Source: Candidatus Latescibacterota bacterium
GTDB taxonomy: Bacteria > Latescibacterota > UBA2968 > UBA8231
NCBI GenBank assembly: GCA_965217585.1
Contig: OZ244561.1
Coordinates: forward strand, 6,272,001-6,336,000
DNA length: 64,000 bases
Direction: 5' to 3'
Part shown: positions 2,602-60,506 of the stretch, piece after piece
How the letters are laid out: each line of letters opens with the position of its first letter
How positions within the stretch are numbered: position 1 is the first letter of the stretch
Program-made: the position numbers and the translations under genes
Notes under the pieces: model-generated
What the model was told of the DNA's origin: nothing
Database searches by the model: none
Seen by the model: the letters and a program-made list of their open reading frames with translations, nothing else

Positions 2602-2612
2602 GAGGGACGGTG

Positions 2613-23600: not shown

Positions 23601-26600
23601 GATCCGGCGACTCGGACGATTTCAGGAACGCCGCCGGAGTTTGCGTGGTATGCTTTTGAAGGGTATGCGTTGACGTATCGGGTGGCGGATGTCGATGGCG
23701 AAGAGCCGACCCCGTTGGTGTTCACGATTCGGGTGGATGGAATTCCTCGCTTCGACGAAACCGTGTCGAGTCAAATCACCTTTGCCGAAGGCCAGACGAT
23801 AGATCCTTGGGTGTTGCCCTCGGCTTCGGGCGGCAACGGCCAGTTGACGTATGAGTTGGTTGGGGAGTTGCCGGAGGGTCTGAGCTATGATGGCGCGACT
23901 CGGACGATTTCGGGTACGCTGTCGGCGGATGCGATGTATGCTGCTGAGAGCGATGGGTATGTGGTGACGTATCAGGTGACGGATCAGGATGGCGATGCGC
24001 CCGCTGCCTTGGAATTCACGATCGTGGTGCATGGTATGCCCAGCTTCAGCGGTCAGGTCGTAGACGACCAGCTGTACCCGGCGGGCGATGCGGTGAGCTT
24101 AGGGCTGCCGGAGGCGGTTGGAGGGAATGGCGCACTGACGTATACCTTGGAAGGGGAGTTGCCTGCGGGTCTTTCGTTTGATGGCGTGGCGCGGACGATT
24201 TCGGGTACGCCGCCGACGGATGCGACCTATGCCGAGTCCGATGCGTTGACGTATCGGGTGACGGATGTCGATGGCGATGCTGTGACGTTGCGCTTTGCGA
24301 TTCGGGTGAATGGTATCCCCAGCTTCGTCCGGGAGGAGGAAGATCAGCTATACCCGGCGGGCGAGGCGGTGAGCTTAGAGTTGCCAGAGGCGGAAGGTGG
24401 GAATGTGGCGAGGACGTATCGCTTGGATGGGGAGTTGCCGGAGGGGCTGGTGTTTGATCCGGCGACTCGGACGATTTCAGGAACGCCGCCGGAGTTTGCG
24501 TGGTATGCTTTTGAAGGGTATGCGTTGACGTATCGGGTGGCGGATGTCGATGGCGAAGAGCCGACCCCGTTGGTGTTCACGATTCGGGTGGATGGAATTC
24601 CTCGCTTCGACGAAACCGTGTCGAGTCAAATCACCTTTGCCGAAGGCCAGACGATAGATCCTTGGGTGTTGCCCTCGGCTTCGGGCGGCAACGGCCAGTT
24701 GACGTATGAGTTGGTTGGGGAGTTGCCGGAGGGTCTGAGCTATGATGGCGCGACTCGGACGATTTCGGGTACGCTGTCGGCGGATGCGATGTATGCTGCT
24801 GAGAGCGATGGGTATGTGGTGACGTATCAGGTGACGGATCAGGATGGCGATGCGCCCGCTGCCTTGGAATTCACGATCGTGGTGCATGGTATGCCCAGCT
24901 TCAGCGGTCAGGTCGTAGACGACCAGCTGTACCCGGCGGGCGATGCGGTGAGCTTAGGGCTGCCGGAGGCGGTCGGTGGGAATGGCGCGTTGACGTATAC
25001 CTTGGAAGGGGAGTTGCCTGCGGGTCTTTCGTTTGATGGCGCGGCGCGGACGATTTCGGGTACGCCGCCGACGGATGCGACCTATGCCGAGTCCGATGCG
25101 TTGACGTATCGGGTGACGGATGTCGATGGCGATGCTGTGACGTTGCGCTTTGCGATTCGGGTGAATGGCATCCCCAGCTTCGTCCGGGAGGAGGAAGATC
25201 AGCTATACCCGGCGGGCGAGGCGGTGAGCTTAGAGTTGCCAGAGGCAGCAGGTGGGAATGTGGCGAGGACGTATCGCTTGGATGGGGAGTTGCCGGAGGG
25301 GCTGGTGTTTGATCCGGCGACTCGGACGATTTCAGGAACGCCGCCGGAGTTTGCGTGGTATGCTTTTGAAGGGTATGCGTTGACGTATCGGGTGGCGGAT
25401 GTCGATGGCGAAGAGCCGACCCCGTTGGTGTTCACGATTCGGGTGGATGGAATTCCTCGCTTCGACGAAACCGTGTCGAGTCAAATCACCTTTGCCGAAG
25501 GCCAGACGATAGATCCTTGGGTGTTGCCCTCGGCTTCGGGCGGCAACGGCCAGTTGACGTATGAGTTGGTTGGGGAGTTGCCGGAGGGTCTGAGCTATGA
25601 TGGCGCGACTCGGACGATTTCGGGTACGCTGTCGGCGGATGCGATGTATGCTGCTGAGAGCGATGGGTATGTGGTGACGTATCAGGTGACGGATCAGGAT
25701 GGCGATGCGCCCGCTGCCTTGGAATTCACGATCGTGGTGCATGGTATGCCCAGCTTCAGCGGTCAGGTCGTAGACGACCAAAGCTACGAAGCAGGCGGTG
25801 AGGAGACCTTAGCCTTGCCGGAGGCGGTTGGTGGGAATGGCGCGTTGACGTATACCTTGGATGGGGAGTTGCCGCCGGGTCTGTCGTTTGATGGCACGGC
25901 TCGGACGATTTCAGGTACGCCGCCGGCCGATTACTTGTATATTGCCGAGGGCTATGCGTTGACGTATCGGGTGGCGGATGTCGATGGCGATGCTGTGACG
26001 TTGACCTTCACGATTGCGGTGAATGGCATACCTAGCTTCGGCGATCAGGTCGTAGAAGACCAGAGCTACGAGGCAGGCACAGGCAATGTGGAAACCTTAG
26101 AGTTGCCGGAGGCGGTCGGTGGGAATGTGGCGTTGACGTATTTCTTGGATGGGGAGTTGCCGCCGGGTCTGGCGTTTAATCCCACGTCTCGGACGATTTC
26201 GGGTGAGTTGTCGCCTAATGTGTCGTATTCTCCCGAAGGGTATGCGTTGACGTATCGGGTGGCGGATGTCGATGGCGAAGAGCCGGCCCCGTTGACCTTC
26301 ACGATTTCGGTGAATGCTATGCCTCTCTTTGAGGGAACTATTACGAATCAGAGGGTTCCTGAAGGGGAAGAGATGGCCCCGTTGGAGTTGCCTGCGGCTT
26401 TGGGCGGCAACGGTGAGTTGACGTATAGCTTGAATGAGGAGAGTTTGCCTCCGGGTCTGGTGTTTGATGCCGAGGCTCGGACGATTTCGGGTACGCCGGA
26501 GCTTCATGTGTCGCATCCTGCCGAGGGCTATGCGTTGACGTACCGGGTAGAAGATGAAGATGGCGATTCGGCTGAGTTGACCTTCTTCCTGACAGTCGAC

Positions 26601-37238: not shown

Positions 37239-38130
37239 AACGTGGCGCGGAATTATGCCGATTGTGGTGACCCCCTTTACCGATAGCTATTCGCTGGATG
37301 AAGCGGCCTTGCGGGATTTGGTCGCCTTCAGTATTGAAGCGGGTGCCACGGGCTTGGTGGGGCCGGCTAATGCCAGCGAATTTTCGACCCTTTCCGATGA
37401 TGAACGCCGTCGCTGGATCGAGATTGTCGTCGCCGTGGCCGATGGCCGAGTACCGGTAGTGGCCTCGATTACCTCGGGCCACGCCGTGCCGGCCGTGGCT
37501 CTCGCTCAGTTTGCTCAAGCTACGGGAGCCGACGGGATCATGTCCATGCCGCCGCACGTATTGCGCGTTGACCAAGAAGGCTGCTACGCCTTTTACCAGC
37601 AGTTGGCGGCCGCGGTTGAGATCCCGATCTGCGTGCAGAATTTCGACGCGCCAGTCGGTACGCCCATGAGCGGCGAACTATTGGGGCGGATGTGCCGCGA
37701 GCTGACTGGCGTCGATTACATCAAGGAAGAGACCGTCCCCGAGCCTTGGCAGGTCAGCCGCACATTGGCGCTGGCTGGCGCGGCCTGCAAGGGCGTATTG
37801 GGTGGCAAAGGGGGAGTCTATTTGCTCGACGAATATCGACGCGGTGCCTGCGGCAATATGCCGGGCTGTCACATGACCGACGTCATGGCGGCGATCTGGG
37901 ATGCCCTTGAAGCAGGCGACGAGGCAACGGCGCGTGTGCGCTTCTATCAACTTCTGCCGCTGATGAATTACGAGCGGCTCTACGGGCTGGCGATCTACAA
38001 GTGGATTCTACAAAAGCGCGGGTTGATCCGCTCGGCGGTTTGCCGGGCACCCGTGCCCGTCCTCGACGGCGACGCACTGACCGAGTTGGAGATCATTTGG
38101 GACGGCGTTGAGCCACTTTTGCGGGGGTGA
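37231..38130 (+). CDS. Dihydrodipicolinate synthase family protein
   Basis: GIMPIVVTPF, ANASEF, DYIKEE (Schiff-base Lys), GNMPG. Confidence 0.88.
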   Translation: MTETWRGIMPIVVTPFTDSYSLDEAALRDLVAFSIEAGATGLVGPANASEFSTLSDDERRRWIEIVVAVADGRVPVVASITSGHAVPAVALAQFAQATGADGIMSMPPHVLRVDQEGCYAFYQQLAAAVEIPICVQNFDAPVGTPMSGELLGRMCRELTGVDYIKEETVPEPWQVSRTLALAGAACKGVLGGKGGVYLLDEYRRGACGNMPGCHMTDVMAAIWDALEAGDEATARVRFYQLLPLMNYERLYGLAIYKWILQKRGLIRSAVCRAPVPVLDGDALTELEIIWDGVEPLLRG

Positions 38131-38134
38131 AATA

Positions 38135-39004
38135 GTGGATACCTATCAACAGTGCATTGAGCGCGACGGCTTTTGCGTTATCGAGCAAGTGATTCCCGAG
38201 GCCGTGGTCGGGGAGATATGCGCCGAGCTGGCGGCCGAGGTCGAGCGCAATCGCCAACATTCCGAAGCCAAGTTGGCCGAAATTCGCCGCCGCGGCCACC
38301 GGATCGGCACCCCAGGCGTGGCCCAGCTCAAACAAGTCATCAATCAGGTGCAATCCTTTGCTCCGTACCTGGCCGACCGCCGGCTCCTAGCGGTAATCGA
38401 GTCTTTTTTCGGGGCTTGGGCGCGGATTTCCTGCACCGACTGCGTGATCAATCACCCGGGTAATGCTCGGGGCTATTGGCACGCCGATTGGCCCTACAAC
38501 TCAACCAACGCCTCGCACATCCCCGCGCCGTATCCAGACGCGGTTTTGCACCTTTCGACCATCTGGATGCTGACGCCGTTTGCCCCTGAGACAGGGGGGA
38601 CTCTCGTGGTGCCGGGCAGTCACCGCTGGCCGCGCAATCCAGCAGCCGGGGACATGCCCGAAATGGATCGGGACGCGCCCTATCCGACCGAGTGCCAGAT
38701 CGAAGGGGCGGCCGGCAGCGTCTTGGTGTACGACAGCCGGCTTTGGCACGCTGTGGCCCCCAACCGTAGCGCAAGCGATCGCGTCGCCCTCATCGTGCGC
38801 TACGCTCCGTGGTGGCTGAACCTGAATCCCACGCTCATCGGCCGGTCCGAACACGAGGCTATGGTGGTGGAGACCGGAGGCAAAAACTACGAGATGATGC
38901 CGCTTGAGCGGGAAGTTTTTGACCGGTTGCCCGCAGCCGTTAAGCCTCTATATCGCCATTGGGTTGCGCAATCTGCCCGGCCTGATGAAGTGCGCGGGCA
39001 CTGA
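38135..39004 (+). CDS. Phytanoyl-CoA dioxygenase family protein
   Basis: YWHADWP, GGTLVVPGSH, DSRLWH...N...R; GTG start. Confidence 0.9.
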   Translation: MDTYQQCIERDGFCVIEQVIPEAVVGEICAELAAEVERNRQHSEAKLAEIRRRGHRIGTPGVAQLKQVINQVQSFAPYLADRRLLAVIESFFGAWARISCTDCVINHPGNARGYWHADWPYNSTNASHIPAPYPDAVLHLSTIWMLTPFAPETGGTLVVPGSHRWPRNPAAGDMPEMDRDAPYPTECQIEGAAGSVLVYDSRLWHAVAPNRSASDRVALIVRYAPWWLNLNPTLIGRSEHEAMVVETGGKNYEMMPLEREVFDRLPAAVKPLYRHWVAQSARPDEVRGH

Positions 39005-47007: not shown

Positions 47008-47111
47008 GAGGCCTCGAATGGCGCGATAAAGAAAAAAAGAATAACTAAATATAAGTATATAAGTAATACAGCAGCCCATGGAGGCGCAACCATCACGAGA
47101 AGGAGGTGCTT

Positions 47112-48161
47112 ATGCAGCGGAAAGTTGCCGCTATTGACGGCCGCGGTCAGGGGGTATGCCTAGAGGAAGCCATGCCCGCACTCGGCCCCGGCGAGGTAAA
47201 AGTGCGGGTGGAGGCTTCGTTGATCAGCCCGGGGACCGAGTTGGGGAGGGTTGGGGCGATGCGGGAAACCCCCCAACCCCACAGGCCACCGCGTCCCTTT
47301 GGCTACACCAACGCCGGCGTCGTCGAAGAGGTCGGGGCCGAGGTAGAGCAATTCGAGGTGGGGCAGGGCGTGGCCTGCATGGGGGGTGGGTATGCCCTGC
47401 ACGCCGATTGGGCCTGTGTGCCGCAGAACTTGTGCGCGGCCATACCCGAGGGCGTTGGCTTTGCCGAGGCCGCGTCTGTGCATCTGGCGGCGACCGGATT
47501 ACACGCAGTGCGCCGCATAGCTCCTTTGTACGGGGAAAATGGGGTCGTCGTTGGGTTGGGTTTGGTCGGCCAGTTCGCTGCCCAATTCGCCCAGTTAAGC
47601 GGCTGCCACGTCTCGGGGGTCGATCGCTTTGCGCGCCGTCGAGACATTGCCCGGCAGGTAGGCATCGAGTGCGTCGTCGATCCGACCGTGCAAGACGTGA
47701 TCGAGCAGGCCGGGAAATTCACCCGAGGGTATGGCATGGATTTCGGCGTCATTGCCTTTGGCGGCGAGGCTAGCGATGCCTTTGCCACCATCTATCAGAG
47801 CCTAAAGCAAGCGCCAGATACGCATCGCATGGGGCGCATTGTCCTCGTGGGAGGAGCACAGGTAACGCATGGCTTTGGATCCGCGCTGGGCAACGTAGAT
47901 GTGCGGAGTGCGGCACGCACCGGTCCCGGCTATCACGACCCAGCGTACGAGCGCGGCCAAGCGTATCCCGAGGTCTTCGTCGAGTGGCCGACGCAGCGCA
48001 ACCTAGCCGAGTGCCTGCGCGCCATGGCCGCTGGGAAGCTGCGCGTCCAACCGCTCTATACCCACGAGTTTGCCCTTGAAGAAATCGCCGCGGCCGTAGA
48101 TGTACTCGTCGAGTCGCCGGCCGAGGCGCTGGGGGTCGTGCTCAAACCGGCTCGCCGGTGA
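47112..48161 (+). CDS. MDR (zinc-binding dehydrogenase-like) oxidoreductase
   Basis: SLISPGTE, PFGYTNAG, VVGLGLVG, GPGYHDPAYE; the catalytic Zn Cys is not evident. Confidence 0.85.
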   Translation: MQRKVAAIDGRGQGVCLEEAMPALGPGEVKVRVEASLISPGTELGRVGAMRETPQPHRPPRPFGYTNAGVVEEVGAEVEQFEVGQGVACMGGGYALHADWACVPQNLCAAIPEGVGFAEAASVHLAATGLHAVRRIAPLYGENGVVVGLGLVGQFAAQFAQLSGCHVSGVDRFARRRDIARQVGIECVVDPTVQDVIEQAGKFTRGYGMDFGVIAFGGEASDAFATIYQSLKQAPDTHRMGRIVLVGGAQVTHGFGSALGNVDVRSAARTGPGYHDPAYERGQAYPEVFVEWPTQRNLAECLRAMAAGKLRVQPLYTHEFALEEIAAAVDVLVESPAEALGVVLKPARR

Positions 48162-48885
48162 CGAGGTTGCGCTTGCCCTCTGGATAGAAGGTCACCGGCG
48201 GCAGGTCGATCTCCTCGCCGGCGATCATTTGCTCCAGCAGAGCGGCGACCCCGTCCACGGCTGGCCCCACTAGGGCTTCGCCCTTGGCGCGCGTGCCCAA
48301 GGCGGCGGCCGGGTTGTCGATGGCTCCGGTCTGCACGCGCTCCGGCGCTAAATAGAGCATGGTCGATGTCTCGAATTCGTCGGCGTGCCCAGGCAGGCGT
48401 CCCCGCTCCATGTGTTGCTGCACGTGGTCGGGGTCATATACGTCCCAATAGGACTGGAAGCGGAGATTGACGCCGAGTTTGTCCTGGTATTCGTCGATAC
48501 GACGCATCATGGGTTTGACATTGCCGCCGTGGCCGTTGAGCACCAAGATGTTCTCAACGCCAGCCCGCGCGAGTGAATGGCAGACGTCGAAGACGTATTC
48601 GCAGAAAATTTCCGGCCGCACGGTCAGGGTGCCGATGTGCGCCATCCAGTGCTCGGAAACGCCGATACCCACTGGTGTGGCCACCACCACTTGGGGCAGG
48701 AGCTTTTTGGCCGCGTGCTCAGCCATATAGCTGGCGTGGAAGGTGTCGTGGATCATGTGCAGGTGTTCGTTGTGCTGTTCGGTGGCGGCCGTGGGCACGA
48801 TGGCGGCCTTGATCGTACCCGCTTGGATGCGCTCGCGGAATTCCTTGCGGGTCAGGTCGCCAATAAAGACGCGTTCGTCGGCCAT
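48142..48885 (-). CDS. Creatininase/creatinine amidohydrolase family protein
   Basis: TEQHNEHL...DT, GVSEHW, LNGHGGN, GHADEFETS. Confidence 0.9.
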   Translation of the reverse strand: MADERVFIGDLTRKEFRERIQAGTIKAAIVPTAATEQHNEHLHMIHDTFHASYMAEHAAKKLLPQVVVATPVGIGVSEHWMAHIGTLTVRPEIFCEYVFDVCHSLARAGVENILVLNGHGGNVKPMMRRIDEYQDKLGVNLRFQSYWDVYDPDHVQQHMERGRLPGHADEFETSTMLYLAPERVQTGAIDNPAAALGTRAKGEALVGPAVDGVAALLEQMIAGEEIDLPPVTFYPEGKRNLVTGEPV

Positions 48886-49065
48886 GATTGTGCTCCTTGT
48901 CAATGGGGAAGGGTAGGGGCCGGTAGCTTAACGGCTGTCCATCCGTGCGTCAAGTGGCTGGACGCTCGGTTGACCGGGAGGGAAAAGCACACTTGAATTC
49001 ACTGCATCAACAAGGGGGCCGTCATCGCCAATCCTTTCGCAGAGTGGAATAAAAACTTCGCGCTC

Positions 49066-50178
49066 TTGGCCGTGGCCGTGGCCGGGACGGGGGTGTTCTT
49101 CGGGGTGCAGTTGACCCTGTTCAACAACTTCATCGTCGAGCGGCTGGGCATTGAGCCACACGAATTGGGCTACGTCGAGGCCCTGCGCGAAGTCCCCGGT
49201 TTTCTCAACGCGTTCTTTCTGGCCCTGATCGTCCGCTGCGCCCCGCCGAAAGTCGCCGCCGTTGCGCTGGTGGTGATGGGCATTGGGCTTGCCGCGTACT
49301 CGGAGGTATCCTCGGTCTTCATGTTGGCCTCGTTCTCACTGGTGTGGAGCTTGGGCTTTCACTGCTGGCTCCCGCTAGAGCAGAGCATGGGCTTGGTCTA
49401 TAGCCCAACCGCGGACAAGGGTCGCTGGTTGGGGCAATTGCGCAGCATTAGTAGCTTGGCTTGGCTGGTGGCGATTGGCGTGTGCATGGTGGGGTTGGAT
49501 TTTTTGCGCTACGAGGGGGTCTTTGTCTTGGCTGGGGTGTGTACGGCCGCGGGTGGCTTGGCCCTGTTTTGGGTCGATAACAAGGACGCGCCCGCAGGTG
49601 AGAAGCGCTTGGTGCTCAAGCGGCGCTATCTGCTCTTCTACGCCCTGAATTTCCTCCAAGGCCTGCGCAAGCAGATGTTTATAACCTTCGCCATTTTCGC
49701 CCTGGTGAAAGTACACGAGATGCCGGTGGAGACGACCATGGTCTTAGTGATGATCAACCAAATGCTCATCTCCTTGACGGCTTCGTGGATGGGCCGTTTG
49801 GTCGATCGCTTTGGCGAGCGGTGGATGCTCACTCTAAGTTATAGCGTGTTGACCTTCGTCTTTTTGGGCTACGCGATCGTGGAGCACCGGCCGAGTCTAT
49901 ACGCGCTTTATTGCCTCGACAACCTCATTTTCTTCGGCGGGATCGCGCTGACGACCTACGCGCACAAGATTGCCCCCCCAGACGAACTCAAACCCACCCT
50001 CTCGATGGGGGTGACCATGAACCACGTGGCATCCGTGGCCGCGCCTCTAGTTGGCGGATACGCCTGGCTCTTTTTTGGCTACGAGGTCATTTTTATTAGC
50101 GGCGCGCTCTTGGCCTTTGTCTCGCTGATAGTAACCCAGTGGCTCGATCCAGCAAAGCAGAGCCTCATACCTATTTAA
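49066..50178 (+). CDS. MFS transporter
   Basis: About 12 hydrophobic segments, LREVPGFL, GRLVDRFGER; the true start may be upstream (see findings). Confidence 0.88.
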   Translation: MAVAVAGTGVFFGVQLTLFNNFIVERLGIEPHELGYVEALREVPGFLNAFFLALIVRCAPPKVAAVALVVMGIGLAAYSEVSSVFMLASFSLVWSLGFHCWLPLEQSMGLVYSPTADKGRWLGQLRSISSLAWLVAIGVCMVGLDFLRYEGVFVLAGVCTAAGGLALFWVDNKDAPAGEKRLVLKRRYLLFYALNFLQGLRKQMFITFAIFALVKVHEMPVETTMVLVMINQMLISLTASWMGRLVDRFGERWMLTLSYSVLTFVFLGYAIVEHRPSLYALYCLDNLIFFGGIALTTYAHKIAPPDELKPTLSMGVTMNHVASVAAPLVGGYAWLFFGYEVIFISGALLAFVSLIVTQWLDPAKQSLIPI

Positions 50179-50199
50179 TCCAACCCAATAGAAGGGAAC

Positions 50200-51066
50200 A
50201 TGACCATGAAAATCGGCACCCGCATGCCCCCGTTTTCCCACCAGATCGGCTTTGACGCCTATGCCGCGTGGTTGGCCGAGAACGGTTTTGGCGCGGTCGA
50301 TACCCCGCCTTTGACCCGTCCAATCGCCCGCACCTGCGAGCAACTAGGCTTGACCCTCGGCACCTCGGACGGTGGCGGCCAAGTCCTCACCCGCGACGCG
50401 GCCAAGCGCCGCAAGGGTTTAAGCGAGATCAAGAAGAGCTTGAGCGCGACCGCCCGGCACGGCGGCCACACGCTCTTTACCGTGCTCGGCCCGGACGACC
50501 CCAGCATGTCCAAAGCCGAGACCTTTGAGATCTTTGCCAAGGTCTACCCCCGGGTCGTGGCCCACGCCGAGAAGGTGGGCGTCAATATCGCCATCGAACC
50601 GTGGCCGGGCGGCCGGCCACACTACGCCAATCTGGGCTGCTCGCCCGAGAGCCTGCGCTTGATTTTTGCGGCGTGCCCATCGCCACGGCTGGGCATTTGC
50701 TACGATCCGTCTCACTTCGTGCGCTTGCAGATCGACTATCAGCGGCTCTTGCACGAATTTGGCGACCGCGTGCGGCACGTCCATCTCAAGGACACCGAGA
50801 TCATGCCGGAAAGGCTCTACGAATCCGGCAACCTAGGAGAGGCATACAGCTCGACCTACGTGTGTGGCGAGGGTTGGTGGCGCTATACCATCCCCGGGGA
50901 GGGCGAGGTGGATTGGAACTTTGTGGTGCGCCGGCTCGAAGACGTGGGCTACGACGGCGTGCTCTCAGTGGAACTCGAAGACCACTACTTCTGGCAGACG
51001 CCTGAGCTGCAACAGGAGGGCTTGTTGCGCGCCAAAGACCATATTGAGCCGCTGCTCAGGGGATAA
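50200..51066 (+). CDS. Sugar phosphate isomerase/epimerase (TIM barrel)
   Basis: IAIEPW, YDPSH, HVHLKDTE, PGEGEVDW, LSVELED. Confidence 0.9.
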   Translation: MTMKIGTRMPPFSHQIGFDAYAAWLAENGFGAVDTPPLTRPIARTCEQLGLTLGTSDGGGQVLTRDAAKRRKGLSEIKKSLSATARHGGHTLFTVLGPDDPSMSKAETFEIFAKVYPRVVAHAEKVGVNIAIEPWPGGRPHYANLGCSPESLRLIFAACPSPRLGICYDPSHFVRLQIDYQRLLHEFGDRVRHVHLKDTEIMPERLYESGNLGEAYSSTYVCGEGWWRYTIPGEGEVDWNFVVRRLEDVGYDGVLSVELEDHYFWQTPELQQEGLLRAKDHIEPLLRG

Positions 51067-51069
51067 GCA

Positions 51070-52674
51070 GTGGGTGCCCTGCTTCTGGTGCTCCTGCTGT
51101 CGGCAGCCAGCTATGGACAGAGCCACTTCGTCGAGGTAGCGCGCGAATTAGGGATCGACTTCGTCCACCACAATGGGGCCTCTGCCGAGAAAAATTTGCC
51201 TGAAACCAATGGCGCTGGCAGTGCTTTTCTCGACTACGACGATGACGGAGATTGGGATTTGTACTTGGTCAACAGCGGGGACATGGAGCAGGGGCGGGGC
51301 ACAGCCTCTAACCAGCTCTTTCGCAACGACGGGAACGCCTTTGTCCGAGTGGACGGCGCAGCGGGCGCATCCGGTGCCTCCTATGGCATGGGGGTGACCG
51401 CGGCCGACTACGATGGCGACGGCGGCCCAGATCTCTACCTGACGGCGTGGGGGCCGGACCAGTTCTACCGGCGCGAAAGGGGTGGCTATGTCGATGCGAC
51501 GGACGCGACCGGTCTCGGTCACGCGGGATGGACCACCAGCGCCGTTGCGTTCGACTACGATCTCGACGGCGACCTCGATCTCTTCGCCGCGCAATACGTC
51601 CGCTTTGCCTTGGGTGAACAGCCTTGGTGCGGACGCGCAGACATGGGGCTGCGCTTCTACTGCGATCCGAGGGTCTTTGCGTCCACTGCGGACATCCTCT
51701 ATCGCAATGAGGGCCACGGCGTCTTTTCCGAGGTTGGCCGCCAAGCGGGTATCGAGCGCGAGGGCAATGGGTTGGGCGCAGTGGCTGGCGACTTCGATGG
51801 GGACGGCGACCCAGATCTGTACGTGGCCAACGACTTAACGCCCAATTTCCACTACGTCAACCAAGGCGACGGCACTTTTGCCGAGACCGGCTTGCTGGCC
51901 GGGACCGCGCTAAGCGCAGACGGGGCTAGCCAAGCGGGCATGGGCGTCGATGCCGGCGACATAGACCAAGACGGCGACCTCGACCTCTTCGTCACCAATT
52001 ACCAGTTGGAAAACAACGGGCTGTATCGCAACGACGGCTCGTTTTACTCAGAGATTAGCTTCAAGGCCGGCCTCGGCGACCTCAGCCTGAACCACCTTGG
52101 TTTTGGCACGGGTTTCTTCGACTCCGACAACGACGGGTACCTCGACCTGTTCGTGGGCAATGGCCACGTCCACGACAACATTGAATCGTACGATGAATTG
52201 GTGACCTACGCGCAGCGGGCACAGCTATTTCGCAATGGGGGGGCGGGCGTCTTCCGCGAAGTGACCGCTGAGAGCGGCCCGGCTTTCGCAGCCGCCTACG
52301 TGGTGCGTGGCTCCTCCTTTGGGGACATTGACCAAGATGGCGACTTGGACATTGCCCTCGTCAACAACGGCCGCCGCTTTGCCCTGCTGCGCAACGACGG
52401 TGTTGGGGGCAACTACCTCGCGGTCTCGCTGGAAGGCCGGCAGAGCAATCGCGACGGCATCGGCACCCGCCTGTACCTATGGGCCGGCGGACGTCGGCAG
52501 TTCAGGGAAGTAAAGGCGGGATCGGGTTTCCTCTCGACCAGTCAGCGCGACCCCGTGTTCGGATTGGGAACGGCCGAGCGCATCGAGCGACTGGAAATTC
52601 ACTGGCCGGCCGGGGGGGTACAAGTGCTCGAAGACCTAGCAGCGAACCAGCGGTTGCACGTAGTGGAAAATTGA
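51070..52674 (+). CDS. CRTAC1 family protein (FG-GAP/VCBS repeats plus ASPIC/UnbV)
   Basis: Repeated DxDxDGDxDL motifs; SNRDGIG...FGLG...IHWPAG C-terminal domain; signal peptide. Confidence 0.92.
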   Translation: MGALLLVLLLSAASYGQSHFVEVARELGIDFVHHNGASAEKNLPETNGAGSAFLDYDDDGDWDLYLVNSGDMEQGRGTASNQLFRNDGNAFVRVDGAAGASGASYGMGVTAADYDGDGGPDLYLTAWGPDQFYRRERGGYVDATDATGLGHAGWTTSAVAFDYDLDGDLDLFAAQYVRFALGEQPWCGRADMGLRFYCDPRVFASTADILYRNEGHGVFSEVGRQAGIEREGNGLGAVAGDFDGDGDPDLYVANDLTPNFHYVNQGDGTFAETGLLAGTALSADGASQAGMGVDAGDIDQDGDLDLFVTNYQLENNGLYRNDGSFYSEISFKAGLGDLSLNHLGFGTGFFDSDNDGYLDLFVGNGHVHDNIESYDELVTYAQRAQLFRNGGAGVFREVTAESGPAFAAAYVVRGSSFGDIDQDGDLDIALVNNGRRFALLRNDGVGGNYLAVSLEGRQSNRDGIGTRLYLWAGGRRQFREVKAGSGFLSTSQRDPVFGLGTAERIERLEIHWPAGGVQVLEDLAANQRLHVVEN

Positions 52675-52740
52675 CGATCACCGTGCTCCCGTCTATTATT
52701 CAGCCGAATTCAGCCGACCAATCAAAGAGGAGCGAGCGAT

Positions 52741-53727
52741 ATGACCGGATTTGCTGTTGTAGGGTTGGGCATGGGGCGCAATCGCGCCCGGCAAGTGGCC
52801 GAGACCGCAGGGGCCGAGTTGTGTGTGGTCGTCGATCTCAACGAGGACTTGGCTCGCCAAGTAGGCGAGGAAATGGGTTGCTCGTGGTGTACGGCCCTCG
52901 AAGACGCCTTGGGGCGGGGCGATGTGGATGTCGTGCTGGTGATGACCCCGAGCGGGCTGCACGCGTCCATAGGCGTCGAGGCGCTCAGAGCCGGCAAGCA
53001 CGTAATCACCACCAAGCCGATGGACGTCAGCACGAAAGCTTGCGACGAGCTGATCGCCGCGGCTGACGAGGGCGGCCTCTTGCTCGGCGTCGATTACCAA
53101 AGCCGCTACGTTGACAACAACTACCGCGTCGCCGCGGCCCTCAAGCAGGGCCTGTTGGGCAAGCCCATCCTCGGCGAGGTGCGCTTTAAGTGGTTTCGTT
53201 CACAGGAGTACTTTGAACACGGCGGCGGCTGGCGCGGCACTTGGGCGATGGACGGGGGAGGGTCGCTGGCCAACCAGGGGTCGCACCTGATCGATCTCCT
53301 ACTGTGGTTCATGGGCGTGCCCAAAACCGTCTATGGCGAGACGGCGATCATGAACCACGACATTGAGACTGAGGATATTGGCCAGGCCATTTTGAATTTC
53401 GAGAGCGGTGCCAAGGGGGGCATCTTGGGCACGACGACCTTCCCGGCAAGCCCCTACTTTAGCGCAGAGGTCCACGGCAGCGCAGGAGGGGTGTTGCTGG
53501 ATGCCGCGCTGTCGGGCGAGATGCGCGTCTTTGGCGACGGCTTGGAGGAGAAGCTGCACGCCATAGACAACCCGCTGGCCAATGTCGTCGAGGACGTGGT
53601 CTCGGCCCTAGAAAACGGAACCGACCTGCGGGTGGATGGCCGCGAGGGCCGCCACACAGTGGCGCTGTTGGAAAACATCTACCGCTCGGCGCGGGAGGGA
53701 AAGGTGCTGGATTACCATGACGGATAA
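52741..53727 (+). CDS. Gfo/Idh/MocA family oxidoreductase
   Basis: VVGLGMG, KHVITTKP, WRGTWAMDGGGSLANQGSHLID. Confidence 0.9.
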   Translation: MTGFAVVGLGMGRNRARQVAETAGAELCVVVDLNEDLARQVGEEMGCSWCTALEDALGRGDVDVVLVMTPSGLHASIGVEALRAGKHVITTKPMDVSTKACDELIAAADEGGLLLGVDYQSRYVDNNYRVAAALKQGLLGKPILGEVRFKWFRSQEYFEHGGGWRGTWAMDGGGSLANQGSHLIDLLLWFMGVPKTVYGETAIMNHDIETEDIGQAILNFESGAKGGILGTTTFPASPYFSAEVHGSAGGVLLDAALSGEMRVFGDGLEEKLHAIDNPLANVVEDVVSALENGTDLRVDGREGRHTVALLENIYRSAREGKVLDYHDG

Positions 53728-54754
53728 AGTGTACGCGGCCCTCGTCGGGTTGGACAATCCCCACAGTCGCGGATGGCTGACCTCGCTGCAGCACTGCGAG
53801 GCCGTGGGTCGGTTGGTCGTCTGCGCGACCGAAGAATGCACTGGCGTCGATCAGGTGTATGGCAGCCTAGACGCGCTGCTGGCGGACGAGAAGCTGGGAT
53901 TAGCGATAGTCTGTACGCGCAACGACCAAGCGCCAGACCTCATCGCGCAGCTTTTGCAGGCCGGCGTGCCGGTCATTGCCGAGAAACCGGTCGCACGCAC
54001 GGCCGCTGACATCGCCCGCCTCAACGAAATCGCTGCCGCGCAGCAGGTCTTGTGGGCGACGGCCTTTTTGAACCGCTGTCACCCGATTGCCGGCAAGATG
54101 CGTGAACTTGTCGCTGCCGGCGTCTTGGGCCGCATCGTCTCCATTGAGGGTCGGATGGTCACTAGCACCGTCCAGCAGCGCAACCCGGACCACTGGCTCT
54201 TTGACCGTGCACAGGCGGGCGGGGGGATTCTGCATTGGCTGGCGATCCATACGGTCGATTTGGTCCGCTATATCAGCGGCTTGGAGTACGAAAGCGTCAG
54301 CGCGTACAAGGCGACGCTGAGCGGTACCGGCATCGACGTCGAGGACGTGCTCGCCGCTTCGTTCCGCATGGACAACGGCGCGCTGGGGAGCCTTCACGCG
54401 GGCTATGTCCTGCCGCGCCGCTACGGCGATATCTACTTGTGTTTCAGGGGGACCGCAGGGGATGCGACTTGGGTGATGCAAGATTGGACCGGGCGGACCG
54501 GGCGCGGCGACCGGCTCATCGTCCAGAGCCAAGCCGAGGGCTGGGCCGAGGACGAGTACCGCCAATTCGACCTGTCCGTCGGCGCGGCCCCCGGGTACGG
54601 TGGGGCGGCCGGATTGGGTTTTATCGCCGACTTCGTCGCCGCCAGCCGTGGGCAGGGTACTTTTATCACCAATGGCGACGATGCCTGGCAGGCCATGCAC
54701 TTTGTCGAGGCGGCGTACGCTGCGGCTGAGCGAGGCTGCCAACTCGAACTGTAA
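53717..54754 (+). CDS. Gfo/Idh/MocA family oxidoreductase
   Basis: VIAEKP, GGGILHWLAIHTVD, VEDV; start MTDKVY. Confidence 0.88.
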   Translation: MTDKVYAALVGLDNPHSRGWLTSLQHCEAVGRLVVCATEECTGVDQVYGSLDALLADEKLGLAIVCTRNDQAPDLIAQLLQAGVPVIAEKPVARTAADIARLNEIAAAQQVLWATAFLNRCHPIAGKMRELVAAGVLGRIVSIEGRMVTSTVQQRNPDHWLFDRAQAGGGILHWLAIHTVDLVRYISGLEYESVSAYKATLSGTGIDVEDVLAASFRMDNGALGSLHAGYVLPRRYGDIYLCFRGTAGDATWVMQDWTGRTGRGDRLIVQSQAEGWAEDEYRQFDLSVGAAPGYGGAAGLGFIADFVAASRGQGTFITNGDDAWQAMHFVEAAYAAAERGCQLEL

Positions 54755-54796
54755 GAGTCAGATAGACGCACCAACCTAACTTCAGGAGGCAGACCT

Positions 54797-56068
54797 GTGA
54801 AAGTCGTAGATGTCGAGCGGATCGTAGTCGAGGTGCCCTTTACGCAACGCCAGCAAAAAATCACGGCCCGAGAAGTGTACAACTGGTGTATCCTAGAGCT
54901 GTGCCGCGTTACAACCGATAGCGGCCACGTGGGCTGGGGGGAGACGGTCATCCACTACACTTGGGCCAGGGTATCTGATGAGGCGGTCGAGCGGGTTGTG
55001 GGCCAAAGCCCGGCGGCCCTGATGCACGACGACTCCTTGGGGGCAGGGTTGCAGATGGCGCTTTTCGACGTAGTCGGCAAGGCCCTTGAAGTGCCCGTGT
55101 ACCAGCTTATGGGCAATAAGTGCCGCGATTGGGTGCCCTTGTCTTGGTGGTCCATCGATGCCTCGCCGCAGGATTGGGCTGCCGAGGCCAAAGATGCGGT
55201 GGAAGCCGGCTATACCAGCTTTAAGCTCAAACCGCGGCCTTGGTGGGACATAGTGGCCCAGATCGACACAATCTGCCAGGTCGTGCCTCCGCATTTCAAG
55301 TTGGACCTCGATCCCAATGCTACTTGGCAAAACGCCGCCACCGCGATCCCTATTATCAAAAGGCTCGAAGCCTACGACAACGTGGCCATCTACGAATCCC
55401 CCATTCCCCAGGACGACATACTCGGCAACCGGCAGATCCGCGCGACCAGCAACCGGCCCATTGCCATGCATTTTGGCTCGCCGCCGTACGTAACTCAGGT
55501 TAGGGAGGAGGTCTGCGACGGCTATGTGCTCTGCGCTGGCCAGTCGCAGCTCATGCGCCAAGCCGAGCTCAGTGCCGAGGCCGCCATGCCCTTCTGGCTG
55601 CAACTGGTCGGCAATGGTTTGACGACGACGTGGGCCGCGCATTTGGGGGCCGTGCTCACTCACGCCACTTGGCCGGCCATAACCTGCATCAATCTGTACA
55701 GCCACCAGCTTCTCAAAGAGGCAATCGACGTGGTTGGGGGGTATCACCGGGTGCCCGAGGGACCGGGTTTGGGCGTGGAAATCGACGAGCCGGCCATCGC
55801 CCGCTACCGGGTGCCGGAGGAGACGCTCAAGTCGCTGCAGGGCGCACCCTACACGCTGCCGGAGCCGAGGATCATCCGCTCGGTCGTCTATCCCGACGGC
55901 AGTTGCGTACATCTGGCCCATTCGGGCCAGGGCTACAGTTACTTCGGTGGCGGAAACGGCCCGGCCCAAGCCGAAGGCGTACGGCTCGAAACGTGGGCCG
56001 ACGATGGTTCCAAGGAGTGGCAGCAGCTATTTGCTCGGGCGCAGGAACATCCGGTGCGCGATCGCTAG
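54797..56068 (+). CDS. Mandelate racemase/enolase superfamily enzyme with C-terminal extension
   Basis: GWGE, MALFDVVGK, FKLKPRPW, LDPN, YESP, PGLGVEID. Confidence 0.88.
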   Translation: MKVVDVERIVVEVPFTQRQQKITAREVYNWCILELCRVTTDSGHVGWGETVIHYTWARVSDEAVERVVGQSPAALMHDDSLGAGLQMALFDVVGKALEVPVYQLMGNKCRDWVPLSWWSIDASPQDWAAEAKDAVEAGYTSFKLKPRPWWDIVAQIDTICQVVPPHFKLDLDPNATWQNAATAIPIIKRLEAYDNVAIYESPIPQDDILGNRQIRATSNRPIAMHFGSPPYVTQVREEVCDGYVLCAGQSQLMRQAELSAEAAMPFWLQLVGNGLTTTWAAHLGAVLTHATWPAITCINLYSHQLLKEAIDVVGGYHRVPEGPGLGVEIDEPAIARYRVPEETLKSLQGAPYTLPEPRIIRSVVYPDGSCVHLAHSGQGYSYFGGGNGPAQAEGVRLETWADDGSKEWQQLFARAQEHPVRDR

Positions 56069-56121
56069 CAGCAGCGTTGATTTTCAATTCGTTTTGATTA
56101 TCACTTTCTATAGATAACATT

Positions 56122-57324
56122 ATGTGCGCCAAGAAAATAGCTGCTATCCAAACCTTTGAATTGTCGCCCCCGCCCCCGAGCGAGGAAGGCACCCGACCGC
56201 TGCGCGAGCAGGCGTGGCTTTGGGCACCTGAGCAGGCCACGCCGATGGATAAATTCGCGCCCGAGGAGCGGATCATGCCCAAGCCGGGTGGGGTGATTTG
56301 GGTCAAGGTCATCGCCGAGGACGGCACCTTTGGCTTGGGCCGTACGGATTCGGCCCATGCCACCCAGCCGATCATCGCCGAGTGCCTAGCCCCCCTAGTC
56401 GTCGGGCAGGAGGTGGGGGCCATTGATCGGTGCAATGATCGCATGTGGCGGGGGACGCTCTCCTTTGGCAACGAAGGGCTTACGGCGCGGGCGGTCGCCG
56501 GAGTCGATCTGGCGCTGTGGGATCTGTGGGGCAAAACCCTGGACCAGCCTGTCTATCGGCTGGCCGGAGGCCCGCAGCGCACCCAGATGGAAGTCTATGC
56601 CACCGGCAACGACGTCGATTGGTACTTGGAGTTGGGCTTCAAAAAGTTCAAGCTGGCCCGTCCGCACGGACCCGTTGATGGCCAAGCCGGAATCGACGGC
56701 ACGGTCGAACTGATAGCTAAGTGCCGCGAGTTAATCGGCCCAGACGCCGACTTGATGCTCGATTGCTGGATGACCTTTGACCTCGACTTTGCCGTGCGCC
56801 TCTGCGAGGCGCTCAAGCCGTATCGGATGCGCTGGATGGAGGAAATGCTGATGCCCCACGACTGGGAGGGGCACCGGGCCCTGCGCCAGCGCGTCCCTTG
56901 GCAGACGCTGGCCGACGGCGAGCACTGGTCCACTCGCCATCCAGGTATGAGGGCCGTTCAAGAGCGGCTCGTCGATTTGATCCAGGCCGATATCTACTGG
57001 ATAGGGGGCTTTACCGAGGCGATGAAGCTGGCCCACTACGCCGATTCGCAAGGCATCCAGATGTGCCTACACACTGGGGGCAACGACCCGTATGGCCAGC
57101 ATTGGACGGCGGCGATGCCCAATACCCCGCTGATCGAGTTTTTCATCGGCTCTCTGCCCGGGGTGCCGTTGGCTGAGTGCTATATCGGCACGCCTTCAAA
57201 GTGGGGGCAACGACACTACAAAGTTCCACCGGGGACCAACGTGCCACAAAACGGCCTGCTCGGTCTGCCCAAAGGCCCCGGCTTTGGGCTCGACATCCCC
57301 GAGGACTGGCTAAAGGAGGTGTAA
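56122..57324 (+). CDS. Enolase superfamily dehydratase, L-rhamnonate dehydratase-like
   Basis: DLALWDLWGK, YATGND, LMLDCWM, WMEE, GEHW, QADIYWIGG, PGFGLD. Confidence 0.85.
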   Translation: MCAKKIAAIQTFELSPPPPSEEGTRPLREQAWLWAPEQATPMDKFAPEERIMPKPGGVIWVKVIAEDGTFGLGRTDSAHATQPIIAECLAPLVVGQEVGAIDRCNDRMWRGTLSFGNEGLTARAVAGVDLALWDLWGKTLDQPVYRLAGGPQRTQMEVYATGNDVDWYLELGFKKFKLARPHGPVDGQAGIDGTVELIAKCRELIGPDADLMLDCWMTFDLDFAVRLCEALKPYRMRWMEEMLMPHDWEGHRALRQRVPWQTLADGEHWSTRHPGMRAVQERLVDLIQADIYWIGGFTEAMKLAHYADSQGIQMCLHTGGNDPYGQHWTAAMPNTPLIEFFIGSLPGVPLAECYIGTPSKWGQRHYKVPPGTNVPQNGLLGLPKGPGFGLDIPEDWLKEV

Positions 57325-57326
57325 TC

Positions 57327-58337
57327 GTGAAAATCACCCAGATCGAAGAGTTTGTCACCGCGGTGCCGCATATCCCCGCAATTGAAAAGAGTCGTCCCGG
57401 CCATTACTTGGAACAGCCCATCAGCCTGATTAAGGTGCATACCGACGAGGGTATCTGCGGAGTGGGCGAAGGGGGGCGCGGCGGCTCATTGGCCAGCTTG
57501 GAGGCCGAGTGGGTCGGCGTTGATCCCATGCAGGTCAACTTGGGCGATAAAGGAGGGGCGATGATCATGGCCCTGTACGACATCGTCGGCAAGGCCCTCG
57601 GGGTGCCGGCCTGGAAGCTGATGGGGTCCAAGCATTGGGACCGGGTGCCGGTGGGCTGGTGGTCGCCGCCGCTGGAGCCGCGCGAATTCGCCGCCATGGC
57701 CGAGGAAGGGGCCAAGCGAGGGTTCAAGACCCACAAGCTCAAGGCGCGGCCTTGGAACATCGTCGAGACCGTCAAGCTGATGACTAAAGCCGCCGGCCCG
57801 GACTACGGCATTATCGTCGATCCGAATTTTGCCTTTGGCGATTTGAGCACCAGTCTGCGGCTGGCCGAGTCCCTGGAGCCGTATAACATCGAGGCATTTG
57901 AGGATCCCTTCCAGTACTTGCCGGGCTGGTATCAGTACCGCGATTTTCGCCGGCACACCCGCATCCGGCTCGCGCCCCATTTAGGCGATCCGCAGATGGT
58001 GCTGAGCGCGATCCGCGCCGAGGCGGCCGATTGCTTCAATCTGGGCGGCAACGTCGAGAGCGCCCAGATCTGCGCCGGAATGGCCGCGGCGGCCGGGATG
58101 CCGGTCTGGTTGCAGGTCGTGGGGTTGGGTCTAGGCGTGTCGGGTGCCTACGGCACGCACGTCCACGCGACCATTCCCAACGCGACCATCCCCTCCGACA
58201 GCCTGCACTTCACGCGCGAGAACGACCTAATCGGCGGTGCGTTGACGCCGGTCGATGGCTTCGTCACCGTGCCGGATGCACCCGGGCTGGGCGTTGAGTT
58301 GGATATGGAGGCCGTGGAGAAGTATCGCGTGGGGTAG
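57327..58337 (+). CDS. Mandelate racemase/enolase superfamily enzyme
   Basis: GVGE, MALYDIVGK, HKLKARPW, VDPN, FEDP, PGLGVELD; SD AAGGAGG. Confidence 0.88.
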   Translation: MKITQIEEFVTAVPHIPAIEKSRPGHYLEQPISLIKVHTDEGICGVGEGGRGGSLASLEAEWVGVDPMQVNLGDKGGAMIMALYDIVGKALGVPAWKLMGSKHWDRVPVGWWSPPLEPREFAAMAEEGAKRGFKTHKLKARPWNIVETVKLMTKAAGPDYGIIVDPNFAFGDLSTSLRLAESLEPYNIEAFEDPFQYLPGWYQYRDFRRHTRIRLAPHLGDPQMVLSAIRAEAADCFNLGGNVESAQICAGMAAAAGMPVWLQVVGLGLGVSGAYGTHVHATIPNATIPSDSLHFTRENDLIGGALTPVDGFVTVPDAPGLGVELDMEAVEKYRVG

Positions 58338-58392
58338 CGGTCTTGCGATGGATACGCAAACCGCGTATTTTTAATTAGATACAGCCCTGATA

Positions 58393-58468
58393 GAGCCTAT
58401 AGCTCAGCTGGTAGAGCACCGGACTTTTAATCCGTAGGTCCTGGGTTCGACTCCCAGTGGGCTCACCA
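58393..58468 (+). tRNA. tRNA-Lys (TTT)
   Basis: GAGCCTA/TGGGCTC acceptor, AGCTCAGCTGGTAGAGC D-arm, CTTTTAA loop, GGTTCGACTCC, CCA; upstream TTGCGA-17-TATTTT promoter. Confidence 0.96.
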
Positions 58469-58508
58469 AAAAAACGGGCACTTGCGACCCATCGCAGGTG
58501 CCCGTTTT
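58469..58508. terminator. Bidirectional terminator after tRNA-Lys
   Basis: AAAACGGGCACTTGCGA-CCCA-TCGCAGGTGCCCGTTTT. Confidence 0.85.
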
Positions 58509-58526
58509 GCTTGATTTTGCTTTTGT

Positions 58527-59327
58527 TTAAGTAAGCCGCACTACGTCCTCCTTGACGATCTCCTTGACATGGGTGTAGTGGGCCGGGGCCATCAGCTCTA
58601 TAGTCTGCGGTGACAAGCGGTCATAGAGGACTTCTGGGACCGCAGCTTGGCCCTTGAATTGGGGCCGGTAGCGCAACACCAAGGTGCGGCGCAGGCGATC
58701 TTTGGGCTTCCATTGTAAGGTCCCGTGGGCCAGCATTTCCGTCATTACCACGGCGTCTCCGGCCCGCGGCGTCACATTGACGACCCCAACAGGCAGGTCT
58801 TCCCGATGGGCGGTGACGCCGCCGTTGAACAGGCTGGGCGGCCGCGCAAACGCCGCCTTGTGCGAGCCTGGGACCACCAACAAGCCGCCGTCGCTTGGGA
58901 AGACGTCGTCGAAATAGGGGAAGATGACGAAATCGTCGCAGAAGATGCGGTCCTCGCGGGTGTCGTAGCGCGTGCTTTGCCAGCCAAAGTCCTCGCGGGC
59001 ACAATGCAGGCGCAGTGGCTCGTGCTGGTGGCTATCTACCAACAGGGTTCCCCGGCTAAAAGCGGGCCGGTCGTGGGTGAACTCTTTGATGAGGGGCCAC
59101 AGGATGGGGTGAAAGATCAGGGATTCGAGCGCCTTGTCGAAAGCAAAGCCGTTGGCGTAGGACTTGCCGTCGTCGGAGCGGGAAAAGCCCTCGGGTAGCT
59201 CGTCGTCGGGGGTGGCTGTATAGCGGTCCACAGCCGCTCGGGCGGCCGCTAGTTCGCTGTCGCTGAGCACATTGGGAAGGTGCAGATAGCCGTTGATGTC
59301 GAACAGATAGCGCTGTTCGGGGGTCAT
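58527..59327 (-). CDS. PhyH-family Fe(II)/2OG enzyme with non-canonical HxA motif
   Basis: QRYLFDINGYL start, LRLHCARED, DGGLLVVPGSHK, AGDAVV, LAHGTLQW, RRTLVLRY. Confidence 0.85.
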   Translation of the reverse strand: MTPEQRYLFDINGYLHLPNVLSDSELAAARAAVDRYTATPDDELPEGFSRSDDGKSYANGFAFDKALESLIFHPILWPLIKEFTHDRPAFSRGTLLVDSHQHEPLRLHCAREDFGWQSTRYDTREDRIFCDDFVIFPYFDDVFPSDGGLLVVPGSHKAAFARPPSLFNGGVTAHREDLPVGVVNVTPRAGDAVVMTEMLAHGTLQWKPKDRLRRTLVLRYRPQFKGQAAVPEVLYDRLSPQTIELMAPAHYTHVKEIVKEDVVRLT

Positions 59328-60155
59328 TTACGCATCCGCTTCCATCGGCAACATGGTCTCCAGGGTAAAAGCCGCCGCGTGTTTGTGCCCACCGCCGCCG
59401 TAATCGCGCGCTATGCGGCCCACATCCGCGGCCGCGTCCCCCTTGGAGCGCAGATTGTACACGACCCTGCTGTCGGGGCGGATAAAGAACACGGCGGAAA
59501 AGGGATGGCCATCGGCGAGGGCATTGCCGATTTCAGAGGTCAGAAACGTGGCATTGGTAATGGGGACGCGAAACCCGCTGATGGTGGTCCAACCATGGTA
59601 GCGGACGCGCGGCCGGATGAGCCGGTGTTGGAAGCGGAGAATGGCTTGGCCTTCCACGGCGAGGGCTTGCGGCCCTTTTTCGGCGATTTCGTCCCACACC
59701 GCAAAGTCGCGCGGGTACGAGGCGAGGGCGGCGTTGACGGCCTTGGAATCGGGTAAGTCCCACCGCCATAGGTCTCGGTCTTCGGTATAGGCCACCAGCC
59801 AGGGGACGTCGTCGGCACTGACCTGAGAGCGGGGATCAAAAAAGTGTTCCCAAGTCATGCGCGCCCCGGACTTGTCCTCGGCGAATACGCAGTAGTCGAG
59901 CCCAGCTAAGGCCTGCGCGGCCGTTTCGTGATGGTCCAAAACCAAGAGCGAGCGGGCGTGGTCGTGCATTTCCATGAGCTGTCCCCGCTCGTAGCTGAAG
60001 TCGAGGATGACGACGTCGCGGTCGGCCGTAGCCGGCGGGTCGGTGTTGTATTGAACCGCCTTAAACTCGGTTTGCGGATTGACGTAGCGGCGATAGATCC
60101 ACGCGGCACAGAAGCCGTCGTTGCAGCCTCCGTGGAACAGGACCAGAGGTTTCAT
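59328..60155 (-). CDS. DHH/DHHA1 family phosphoesterase (NrnB-like)
   Basis: FHGGCNDGF, ILDFS, LDHHETA, SGARMTW, EDRDLW, LRS, YGGGGHKHAAAF. Confidence 0.9.
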   Translation of the reverse strand: MKPLVLFHGGCNDGFCAAWIYRRYVNPQTEFKAVQYNTDPPATADRDVVILDFSYERGQLMEMHDHARSLLVLDHHETAAQALAGLDYCVFAEDKSGARMTWEHFFDPRSQVSADDVPWLVAYTEDRDLWRWDLPDSKAVNAALASYPRDFAVWDEIAEKGPQALAVEGQAILRFQHRLIRPRVRYHGWTTISGFRVPITNATFLTSEIGNALADGHPFSAVFFIRPDSRVVYNLRSKGDAAADVGRIARDYGGGGHKHAAAFTLETMLPMEADA

Positions 60156-60245
60156 GAATTAGAGGCCCCTTCCTTGACAGGGATGAGAGGCGGGCGATAT
60201 GTTTTTCTCAATATATCGCGTCCCCTGTACATCGGAAAGGCCAAA

Positions 60246-60506
60246 GTGGAAGACACTACTCCTGTAATAAAAGCCTATCTCAATCCGTATTGTCCTTGGA
60301 GTCCGGGAGTGCGGGCGGTACTCGATAGGGCCGGGTTACAATACGAGGAATTGGATACAACCAACGACCGCAAAGCCTTTGAGGAAATGGTCGCCAAGAG
60401 CCGACAGTACGCCTCTCCCTGCGTGGAAATCGACGGCGTTATGCTGGCCGATGTGGGGGGAGAGGAGGTTGCGGCGTGGTTGCGGCAGCGCGGCTTGCTA
60501 TGTTGA
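60246..60506 (+). CDS. Glutaredoxin-like protein (CPWS)
   Basis: YLNPYCPWS, SRQYASPCVEIDG, LADVGGEEV; GTG start after SD GGAAAGG. Confidence 0.85.
   Translation: MEDTTPVIKAYLNPYCPWSPGVRAVLDRAGLQYEELDTTNDRKAFEEMVAKSRQYASPCVEIDGVMLADVGGEEVAAWLRQRGLLC

Follow-up and report, generated by a model that had tools for sequence, protein, structure and literature searches.

The window analysed here, a 64,000-nucleotide stretch of a Latescibacterota genome, was found to carry on its minus strand (58527..59327) a gene for a 266-aa protein of the PhyH family of Fe(II)/2-oxoglutarate (2OG) oxygenases. Its ORF, Pfam match, structural model and structure matches assign it to a HygX-type clade and, within this, to a group with an H-C-A-R motif (the HCAR subfamily). 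The protein matched the PF05721 (PhyH) profile at 40.3 bits in a Pfam scan (cut-off 22, E 5.7e-10), and its AlphaFold2 model (mean pLDDT 93.1) has a double-stranded beta-helix fold, for which the top structure matches from Foldseek and structure alignment were all PhyH-like oxygenases. Directly upstream lies a gene for a DHH/DHHA1-like phosphoesterase (59328..60155, minus strand; weak matches to Pfam DHH and DHHA1, below cut-off), the stop of which directly precedes the PhyH start. In the contigs of relatives from two runs, four bases are missing at this junction (59328), a loss that would make the DHH stop and the PhyH start overlap. Beyond the 3’ end of the PhyH gene, a 17-pair hairpin (58471..58508) that is terminator-like on both strands separates it from a convergent tRNA-Lys gene (58393-58468, plus strand); the evidence for terminators is a consensus scan that gave five sites against 2.6 expected in shuffles.

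A number of other features were identified in the window. Divergent from the DHH gene is a small reading frame (~60225-60506, plus strand) with C-P-W-S for CxxC, situated at the end of ORF 59928-60506, which we take to be glutaredoxin-like, and the consensus scan also gave a sigma-70-like match at 60174-60203. On the plus strand, positions 47106-58337 hold three enolase-superfamily genes, two Gfo/Idh/MocA oxidoreductases, a sugar isomerase-like barrel, a Zn-dehydrogenase and an FG-GAP/ASPIC-UnbV protein, a block that ends at the tRNA-Lys gene. This sugar-catabolism-like block was not counted as belonging to the same unit as the PhyH gene, being on the opposite strand and beyond the tRNA. Further off (17619-28601, plus strand) lies the gene for a 3660-aa protein with long, near-identical repeats of ~285 residues, the C-terminal part of which presumably resembles an autotransporter barrel.

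A search of GTDB genomes, with patterns that included the HCAR motif and not Glu197, returned at least 502 relatives, of which the best 80 loci were examined, these being mostly from metagenome-assembled genomes (MAGs) of Poribacteria, Latescibacterota and Gemmatimonadota. The DHH neighbour was present at six of these loci, all of near relatives. Enolase-superfamily genes (37/80), a second PhyH gene (35/80) and a Zn-dehydrogenase (32/80) were seen more often, counts that are not independent of each other since the loci are mostly those of syntenic Poribacteria; the 85%-identical orthologues adjoin other oxygenase genes. No clue to a substrate was found in the neighbourhoods of the 80 loci, and neither the locus nor those of its relatives showed a biosynthetic cluster or carrier protein. 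The latter agrees with the sequence-only reading, which had noted no carrier protein nearby; the single PP-binding match of the genome is ~0.93 Mb off. Among 31 related genomes searched, 24 have a match at E <= 1e-40, and the source genome itself has ten, six with the HCAR motif. The motif is therefore no peculiarity of one gene, a point beyond what could be seen in the window. The 18 RNA runs gave small shares only (0.05-0.20), and a contig of a relative from an RNA library spans 58342-60185 with 106 differences, such contigs being unable to show transcription.

The sequence-only reading had drawn attention to a His-Cys-Ala at the position where PhyH proteins carry the first His and the Asp of their iron site (H-x-D). 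His108-Cys109-Ala110 was found at exactly the positions given (58998..59006, minus strand), supplying the proximal iron His and a small residue in place of the canonical Asp. WHQD and WHAD in the other two PhyH genes of the window (2589-3410 and 38108-39004) were likewise as described, as were the retained PGSHK (residues 153-157), distal His (His201) and 2OG-binding Arg (Arg213). The protein thus departs from the HxD of the PhyH family, and the 2His-1Gly/Ala motif by which free-standing radical halogenases (of the BesD, WelO5, AspX and BtnX type) are defined in the available part of PMC13489965 is present as His108/Ala110/His201. Conservation was examined in an alignment of the protein with the best 120 of 377 protein-search matches (121 sequences), in which the three positions are His in 121, Cys in 118 and Ala in 120. 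The possibility of an assembly slip is countered by this conservation of Ala110, by a contig of a public run that covers 58983-59163 with no differences, and by low dN/dS values (0.075-0.102 against seven of eight orthologues, the eighth pair being saturated). The gene is under purifying selection.

The remaining residues of the site were located on the same strand. His201 (58725..58727), the distal iron His, and Arg213 (58689..58691) are present in all 121 sequences; we expect Arg213 to anchor the C5 carboxylate of 2OG, and its equivalent is Arg in 145 of 153 HxD paralogues of the source genome. Four residues before the distal His is Glu197 (58737..58739; E-x3-H), the proposed relocated third iron ligand, which is present in 120 of 121 sequences and at 79 of the best 80 GTDB loci, the remaining one being unmatched by the pattern. 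Arg111-Glu112-Asp113 (58989..58997) forms the start of the least confident stretch of the model (residues 111-120, pLDDT 63), a loop that may serve as a substrate-binding lid; Arg111 is invariant, position 112 is Glu or Asp throughout, and Asp113 is found in 99 of 121. Cys130 (58938..58940), which aligns with a Cys of HygX, is also invariant in this alignment and is present in 18 of the 38 clade members of the source genome described below. Val134 (58926..58928) is aligned to Lys137 of HygX, in a register taken from the HygX alignment, and the position holds Val in 98 sequences, Ile in 17, Ala in six and Lys in none.

HygX of Streptomyces hygroscopicus (PDB 4XC9, 4XCA, 4XCB, 4ZPI), an orthoester-forming Fe(II)/2OG oxidative cyclase of hygromycin B biosynthesis, was identified as the best PDB match by both sequence (E 7e-9) and profile (E 1.5e-15). 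With the 266-aa model as query, it also occupied Foldseek ranks 1-10 (TMq 0.66-0.69), and structure alignment gave a Z of 22.7 (rmsd 2.9, 214 residues aligned, 23% identity). FtmOx1 was a close second (Z 21.5, rmsd 3.4, 233 aligned), HygX being ahead by only 1.2 Z. As described in the consulted part of a review (PMC13374393), from which the HygX ligand set used here is taken, HygX has a triad with a relocated acid, H-X-G...E-X3-H, and Lys137 fills the space where the Asp is missing; the enzyme's formation of an orthoester by oxidative cyclisation has been demonstrated in vitro. The E-x3-H stretch ending at the distal His aligned to HygX without gaps, placing Glu197 on the HygX Glu, with the HMMER alignment being shifted around the first His. 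The two proteins share the small residue two positions after the first His (His1+2; Ala here, Gly in HygX), the Glu four before the second (His2-4), the Cys at 130 and an N-terminal motif. They differ in that overall identity is 21-24%, that the Lys137 position is Val, Ile or Ala in all 121 sequences, and that the H-C-A-R-E/D lid is absent from HygX. Furthermore, neither a hygromycin-type, aminoglycoside nor other biosynthetic cluster accompanies the gene, of which the genome has six such paralogues, so that it does not qualify as a HygX orthologue.

A profile search of 50%-cluster representatives returned 1968 proteins at E <= 0.001, and among the best 150, many of which were fragments, 58 domains had both His residues aligned; 48 of these have an acid at His2-4 and three at His1+2. 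In the 56 domains with H-x-x-R, the His1+2 position was found to be Ala (32), Asn (7), Gln (5), Gly (4), His (2), Leu (2), and Ile, Tyr, Lys or Ser (one each), and Glu or Asp was present at His2-4 in all 23 of those with both His residues aligned. It is therefore the Glu that is the constant of the site and not the small residue. A search of the ESM Atlas returned PhyH clusters only. One clade member, encoded on a Kitasatospora plasmid (NZ_CP108409.1), is 29% identical, with HxG and an Asp at His2-4; its gene (locus L111, 12001-12900) lies inside an unannotated NRPS/PKS-like cluster. This relative was rejected as a clue to the substrate, being too distant.

Comparison was also made to five plasmid genes annotated as ‘chlorinating enzyme’. 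Like the SyrB2/CmaB-type carrier-dependent halogenases (TIGR01762), the protein has a PhyH fold, HxA, two His residues and an R-x5-RY near the C-terminal strand, with Arg219-Tyr220 in a register identical to that of the chlorinating enzymes. In contrast, all five controls have HxA or HxV together with Ser or Ala at His2-4, Glu197 aligning with a Ser in the CmaB-type enzyme, and carrier-protein or adenylation genes adjoin the control gene at all five loci, none being adjacent here. The controls branched together (support 99), with HxD paralogues around them, and lay outside the clade of the protein. TIGR01762 (threshold 226.3 bits) was not among the two NCBIfam families listed for the protein at E <= 1, and gave no match in 61 genomes of the phylum, a negative that carries no weight as the control genomes gave none either.

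Using iterated profiles, 215 PhyH-like domains were identified in 211 ORFs of the 7.3 Mb source genome, alongside one carrier-protein match. Both His residues could be aligned in 203, with eight domains lacking one iron His and four unaligned. An acid is present only at His1+2 in 153 of the 203, only at His2-4 in 38, at both positions in three and at neither in nine. The 38 have the His2-4 acid by definition of the group, and in 34 of them it is Glu; four residues after the first His (+4, the position of Glu112) an acid is found in only 12 of 38, and the equivalent of Cys109 in seven. In a FastTree tree, 37 of the 38 fell together with the protein in one 47-row clade (support 83), and a second tree that included the controls gave a corresponding 44-row clade (support 94). 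These data place the gene in a large lineage that exchanged the Asp for a distal Glu. A Fisher test on the table of His1+2 against His2-4 (p 5e-29) was rejected as evidence of co-evolution, as the swap lies in one clade with only two independent pairs (sign test p 1); being essentially one evolutionary event, it makes the census table no statistical proof.

Other unusual sites were noted in the course of this census. Five domains of the same clade (source genome C1, 3272832-3274451(-), 6777306-6778913(-), 5695605-5697545(-), 2575430-2577070(+) and 5962623-5963849(-)) have both His residues and no acid at either His1+2 or His2-4, with Gln at His2-2 in three and Asp at His2-5 in two. Four of these are the C-terminal halves of double-PhyH proteins of 500-580 aa, in the N-terminal half of which the His residues are lost or unaligned, and the acid-less pattern was also seen in five representatives elsewhere in the 50%-cluster search. 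Proteins of this size are common in component 4 of the atlas discussed below, the consulted part of which classes one 541-aa member as 2His+Gln (PMC13489965). In the search for an odd iron site, these five are more promising than the flagged gene. In addition, one Glu-clade member (7153758-7154558(+)) has both HxD and E-x3-H, possibly a reversion or a two-carboxylate site, and three PhyH-like domains with a His at His1+2 (5813039-5813788(+), 6000397-6001161(+) and 2474934-2476004(-)) possibly have 3-His sites.

An atlas of 946 predicted radical halogenases has been assembled by Kipouros and Chang (2026) from apo AlphaFold2 models, which were mined for sites with two His and no Asp or Glu close by, a method by which AspX and BtnX were found and proved to be halogenases (PMC13489965, as far as consulted). 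Three orthologues of the protein were identified in the source data of its Fig. 1c, namely HHZ89045 (84% identical), HIG57483 (85%) and RKU08362 (59%), so that a halogenase prediction for the family is already in print. All three possess Glu197 and the same motifs as the protein; as they are listed, their Glu must lie outside the cut-off of the atlas in the apo models, whereas here they are assigned a HygX-type Glu. They belong to component 4 (the number in the spreadsheet, from which the cluster number of the paper may differ), with at least 72 rows that are mostly proteins of Poribacteria, Latescibacterota and Gemmatimonadota; no assay of a member of this component appears in the consulted text. 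When 16 family proteins were checked by accession, 13 with the same motifs were absent, including MAT78087/MAT78531 from proteome CMK14, which has three listed entries; the 16 were chosen by convenience, and a protein may also be missing because of database coverage or other filters. Six relatives were absent from the sample that the ligand-class table of the paper covers, and neither ‘HygX’ nor ‘hygroscopicus’ occurs in the supplements searched. We infer that Glu197 is situated close to the metal site, and that metal-free models sometimes show it facing away.

On balance, the protein is probably a non-halogenating Fe(II)/2OG oxygenase with a rearranged facial triad of the HygX type, and its role is probably catabolic. 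This is suggested by the near-invariance of Glu197, the match to HygX in sequence and fold, and the distinct Ser or Ala of the chlorinating controls. The Glu197-iron bond, the chemistry and the role are proposed by homology to HygX. Fe(II) would be bound by His108, His201 and Glu197, a small Ala110 presumably making the space vacated by the canonical Asp available to the relocated Glu. As in the catalytic cycle general to Fe(II)/2OG enzymes, 2OG would be held by the metal through two oxygens, and by Arg213, with O2 taking the last site; decarboxylation would yield succinate, CO2 and an Fe(IV)=O species. The latter would abstract a hydrogen from a free small substrate beneath the 111-130 loop, with Arg111, Glu112 and Arg219 as likely residues of substrate recognition. 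As three protein ligands together with 2OG and O2 would leave no site for a halide, the expected outcome is hydroxylation, which is the most likely, or otherwise ring closure or desaturation as in HygX, most likely serving to break down or modify some organic compound. Against this stand the three Glu197-bearing orthologues in the halogenase atlas (PMC13489965, as far as consulted), the Val in place of Lys137, which possibly leaves an apolar pocket open, and the low identity to HygX and small Z lead over FtmOx1. The relocated triad itself is already known from HygX, and the protein, which is uncharacterised, would be a further example of it. Literature searches outside subscription journals gave no description of either the HCAR subfamily or the E-x3-H clade as a family.

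The sequence-only reading had favoured a free-standing halogenase or other non-canonical chemistry, and in this the HxA holds and has gained three close orthologues in a published atlas, while the near-invariant Glu197 had been overlooked. In such a halogenase, which we consider unlikely here, only His108 and His201 would bind the iron and a halide would sit in the pocket over Ala110 and Val134; Glu197 would be retained for a role in the second sphere or in substrate binding, with the invariant Arg111 perhaps keeping it away from the metal. The conserved Ala110, the absence of the gap-filling Lys of HygX and the appearance of SyrB2 at rank 22 of the Foldseek matches (TMq 0.62) are consistent with this, as is the placing of three of the 16 checked proteins in component 4 of the atlas by a method with two proven halogenases to its credit (PMC13489965, consulted in part). 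However, Glu197 matches the described HygX ligand, and the His1+2 position takes Asn, Gln, Leu, Ile, His and Lys in relatives, so that its smallness is not a fixed property of the site. The shared Arg219-Tyr220 register also favours a halogenase, but an Arg six residues after the Arg213 equivalent is found in 27 of the 153 HxD paralogues too. The atlas evidence is itself two-sided, as the absence of 13 of the 16 fits a Glu near the cut-off in apo models, with coverage or filters as an alternative, and no SwissProt description was found among the component 4 rows examined. Small HxA/G motifs are moreover known to yield false positives, according to the consulted part of PMC13519999.

A carboxylate supplied from elsewhere in the protein had been offered as the alternative, and this is now the likelier reading, with Glu197 as the candidate and not the Glu112 or Asp113 then in mind. 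The latter two are disfavoured by the incomplete conservation of Asp113 (99/121) and the scarcity of the +4 acid among clade members. It is doubtful that the iron sphere is completed or modified by Glu/Asp112 of the lid loop, or by a thiolate (Cys109 or Cys130), whether alone or together with Glu197, as part of a non-canonical site whose chemistry would be unusual (for example, ring formation through C-S or C-O bonds, or redox gating). Such a site would explain why Glu/Asp112 and Cys130 are invariant and Cys109 nearly so in the near family, and the poorly modelled loop could close over the metal; across the clade, though, it is the His2-4 acid that is kept and neither the +4 acid nor Cys109, and the corresponding Cys of HygX is described with no thiolate ligand in the consulted part of the review (PMC13374393). 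Finally, the protein could be a paralogue without catalytic activity or in decay, within a family that has expanded, whether as a ligand-binding protein or a pseudo-enzyme; in favour of this, the genome has 215 such domains, eight without an iron His. This is very improbable for the flagged gene, which keeps both His residues, Glu197 and Arg213, has the low dN/dS values given above and has matches at E <= 1e-40 in 24 of 31 genomes.

Expansion of the PhyH family has been described before in one of the groups concerned. In Poribacteria, each lineage has hundreds of diverse PhyH genes, most of them unannotated (Kamke et al. 2014, PMC3909097), an expansion (PF05721) that the present family resembles in that its named relatives are MAGs of Latescibacterota, Gemmatimonadota and Poribacteria; variants of the iron ligands are not discussed in the consulted part of that account. 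For the PhyH genes of SAR202, a catabolic reading has been proposed (PMC5395668, consulted in part).

The value of the finding lies in the two conflicting readings of one site. If the protein is a HygX-type oxygenase, as we hold probable, the gene is an ordinary, uncharacterised oxygenase gene that exemplifies a kind of false positive to be met in halogenase mining, namely HxA/G with a Glu at the distal His minus 4, which accounts for 38 of the 203 PhyH domains of the source genome. At least three entries of the atlas would then be of this HxA/G and distal-Glu type, three having been checked (PMC13489965, consulted in part). Though there is only a slim chance of it, the HCAR subfamily may instead have evolved, within the HygX clade, into a true family of free-standing halogenases, with Glu197 pulled off the iron, the loss of the HygX Lys opening an apolar halide pocket over Ala110, and Latescibacterota and Poribacteria carrying up to six copies per genome outside gene clusters. 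Were this the case, a halide site would have been reached by a second route, one missed by the rule that a nearby carboxylate means a hydroxylase, in a large unclustered family of marine symbiont lineages, which would make these enzymes a candidate source of organohalogens in sponge-associated and marine bacteria.
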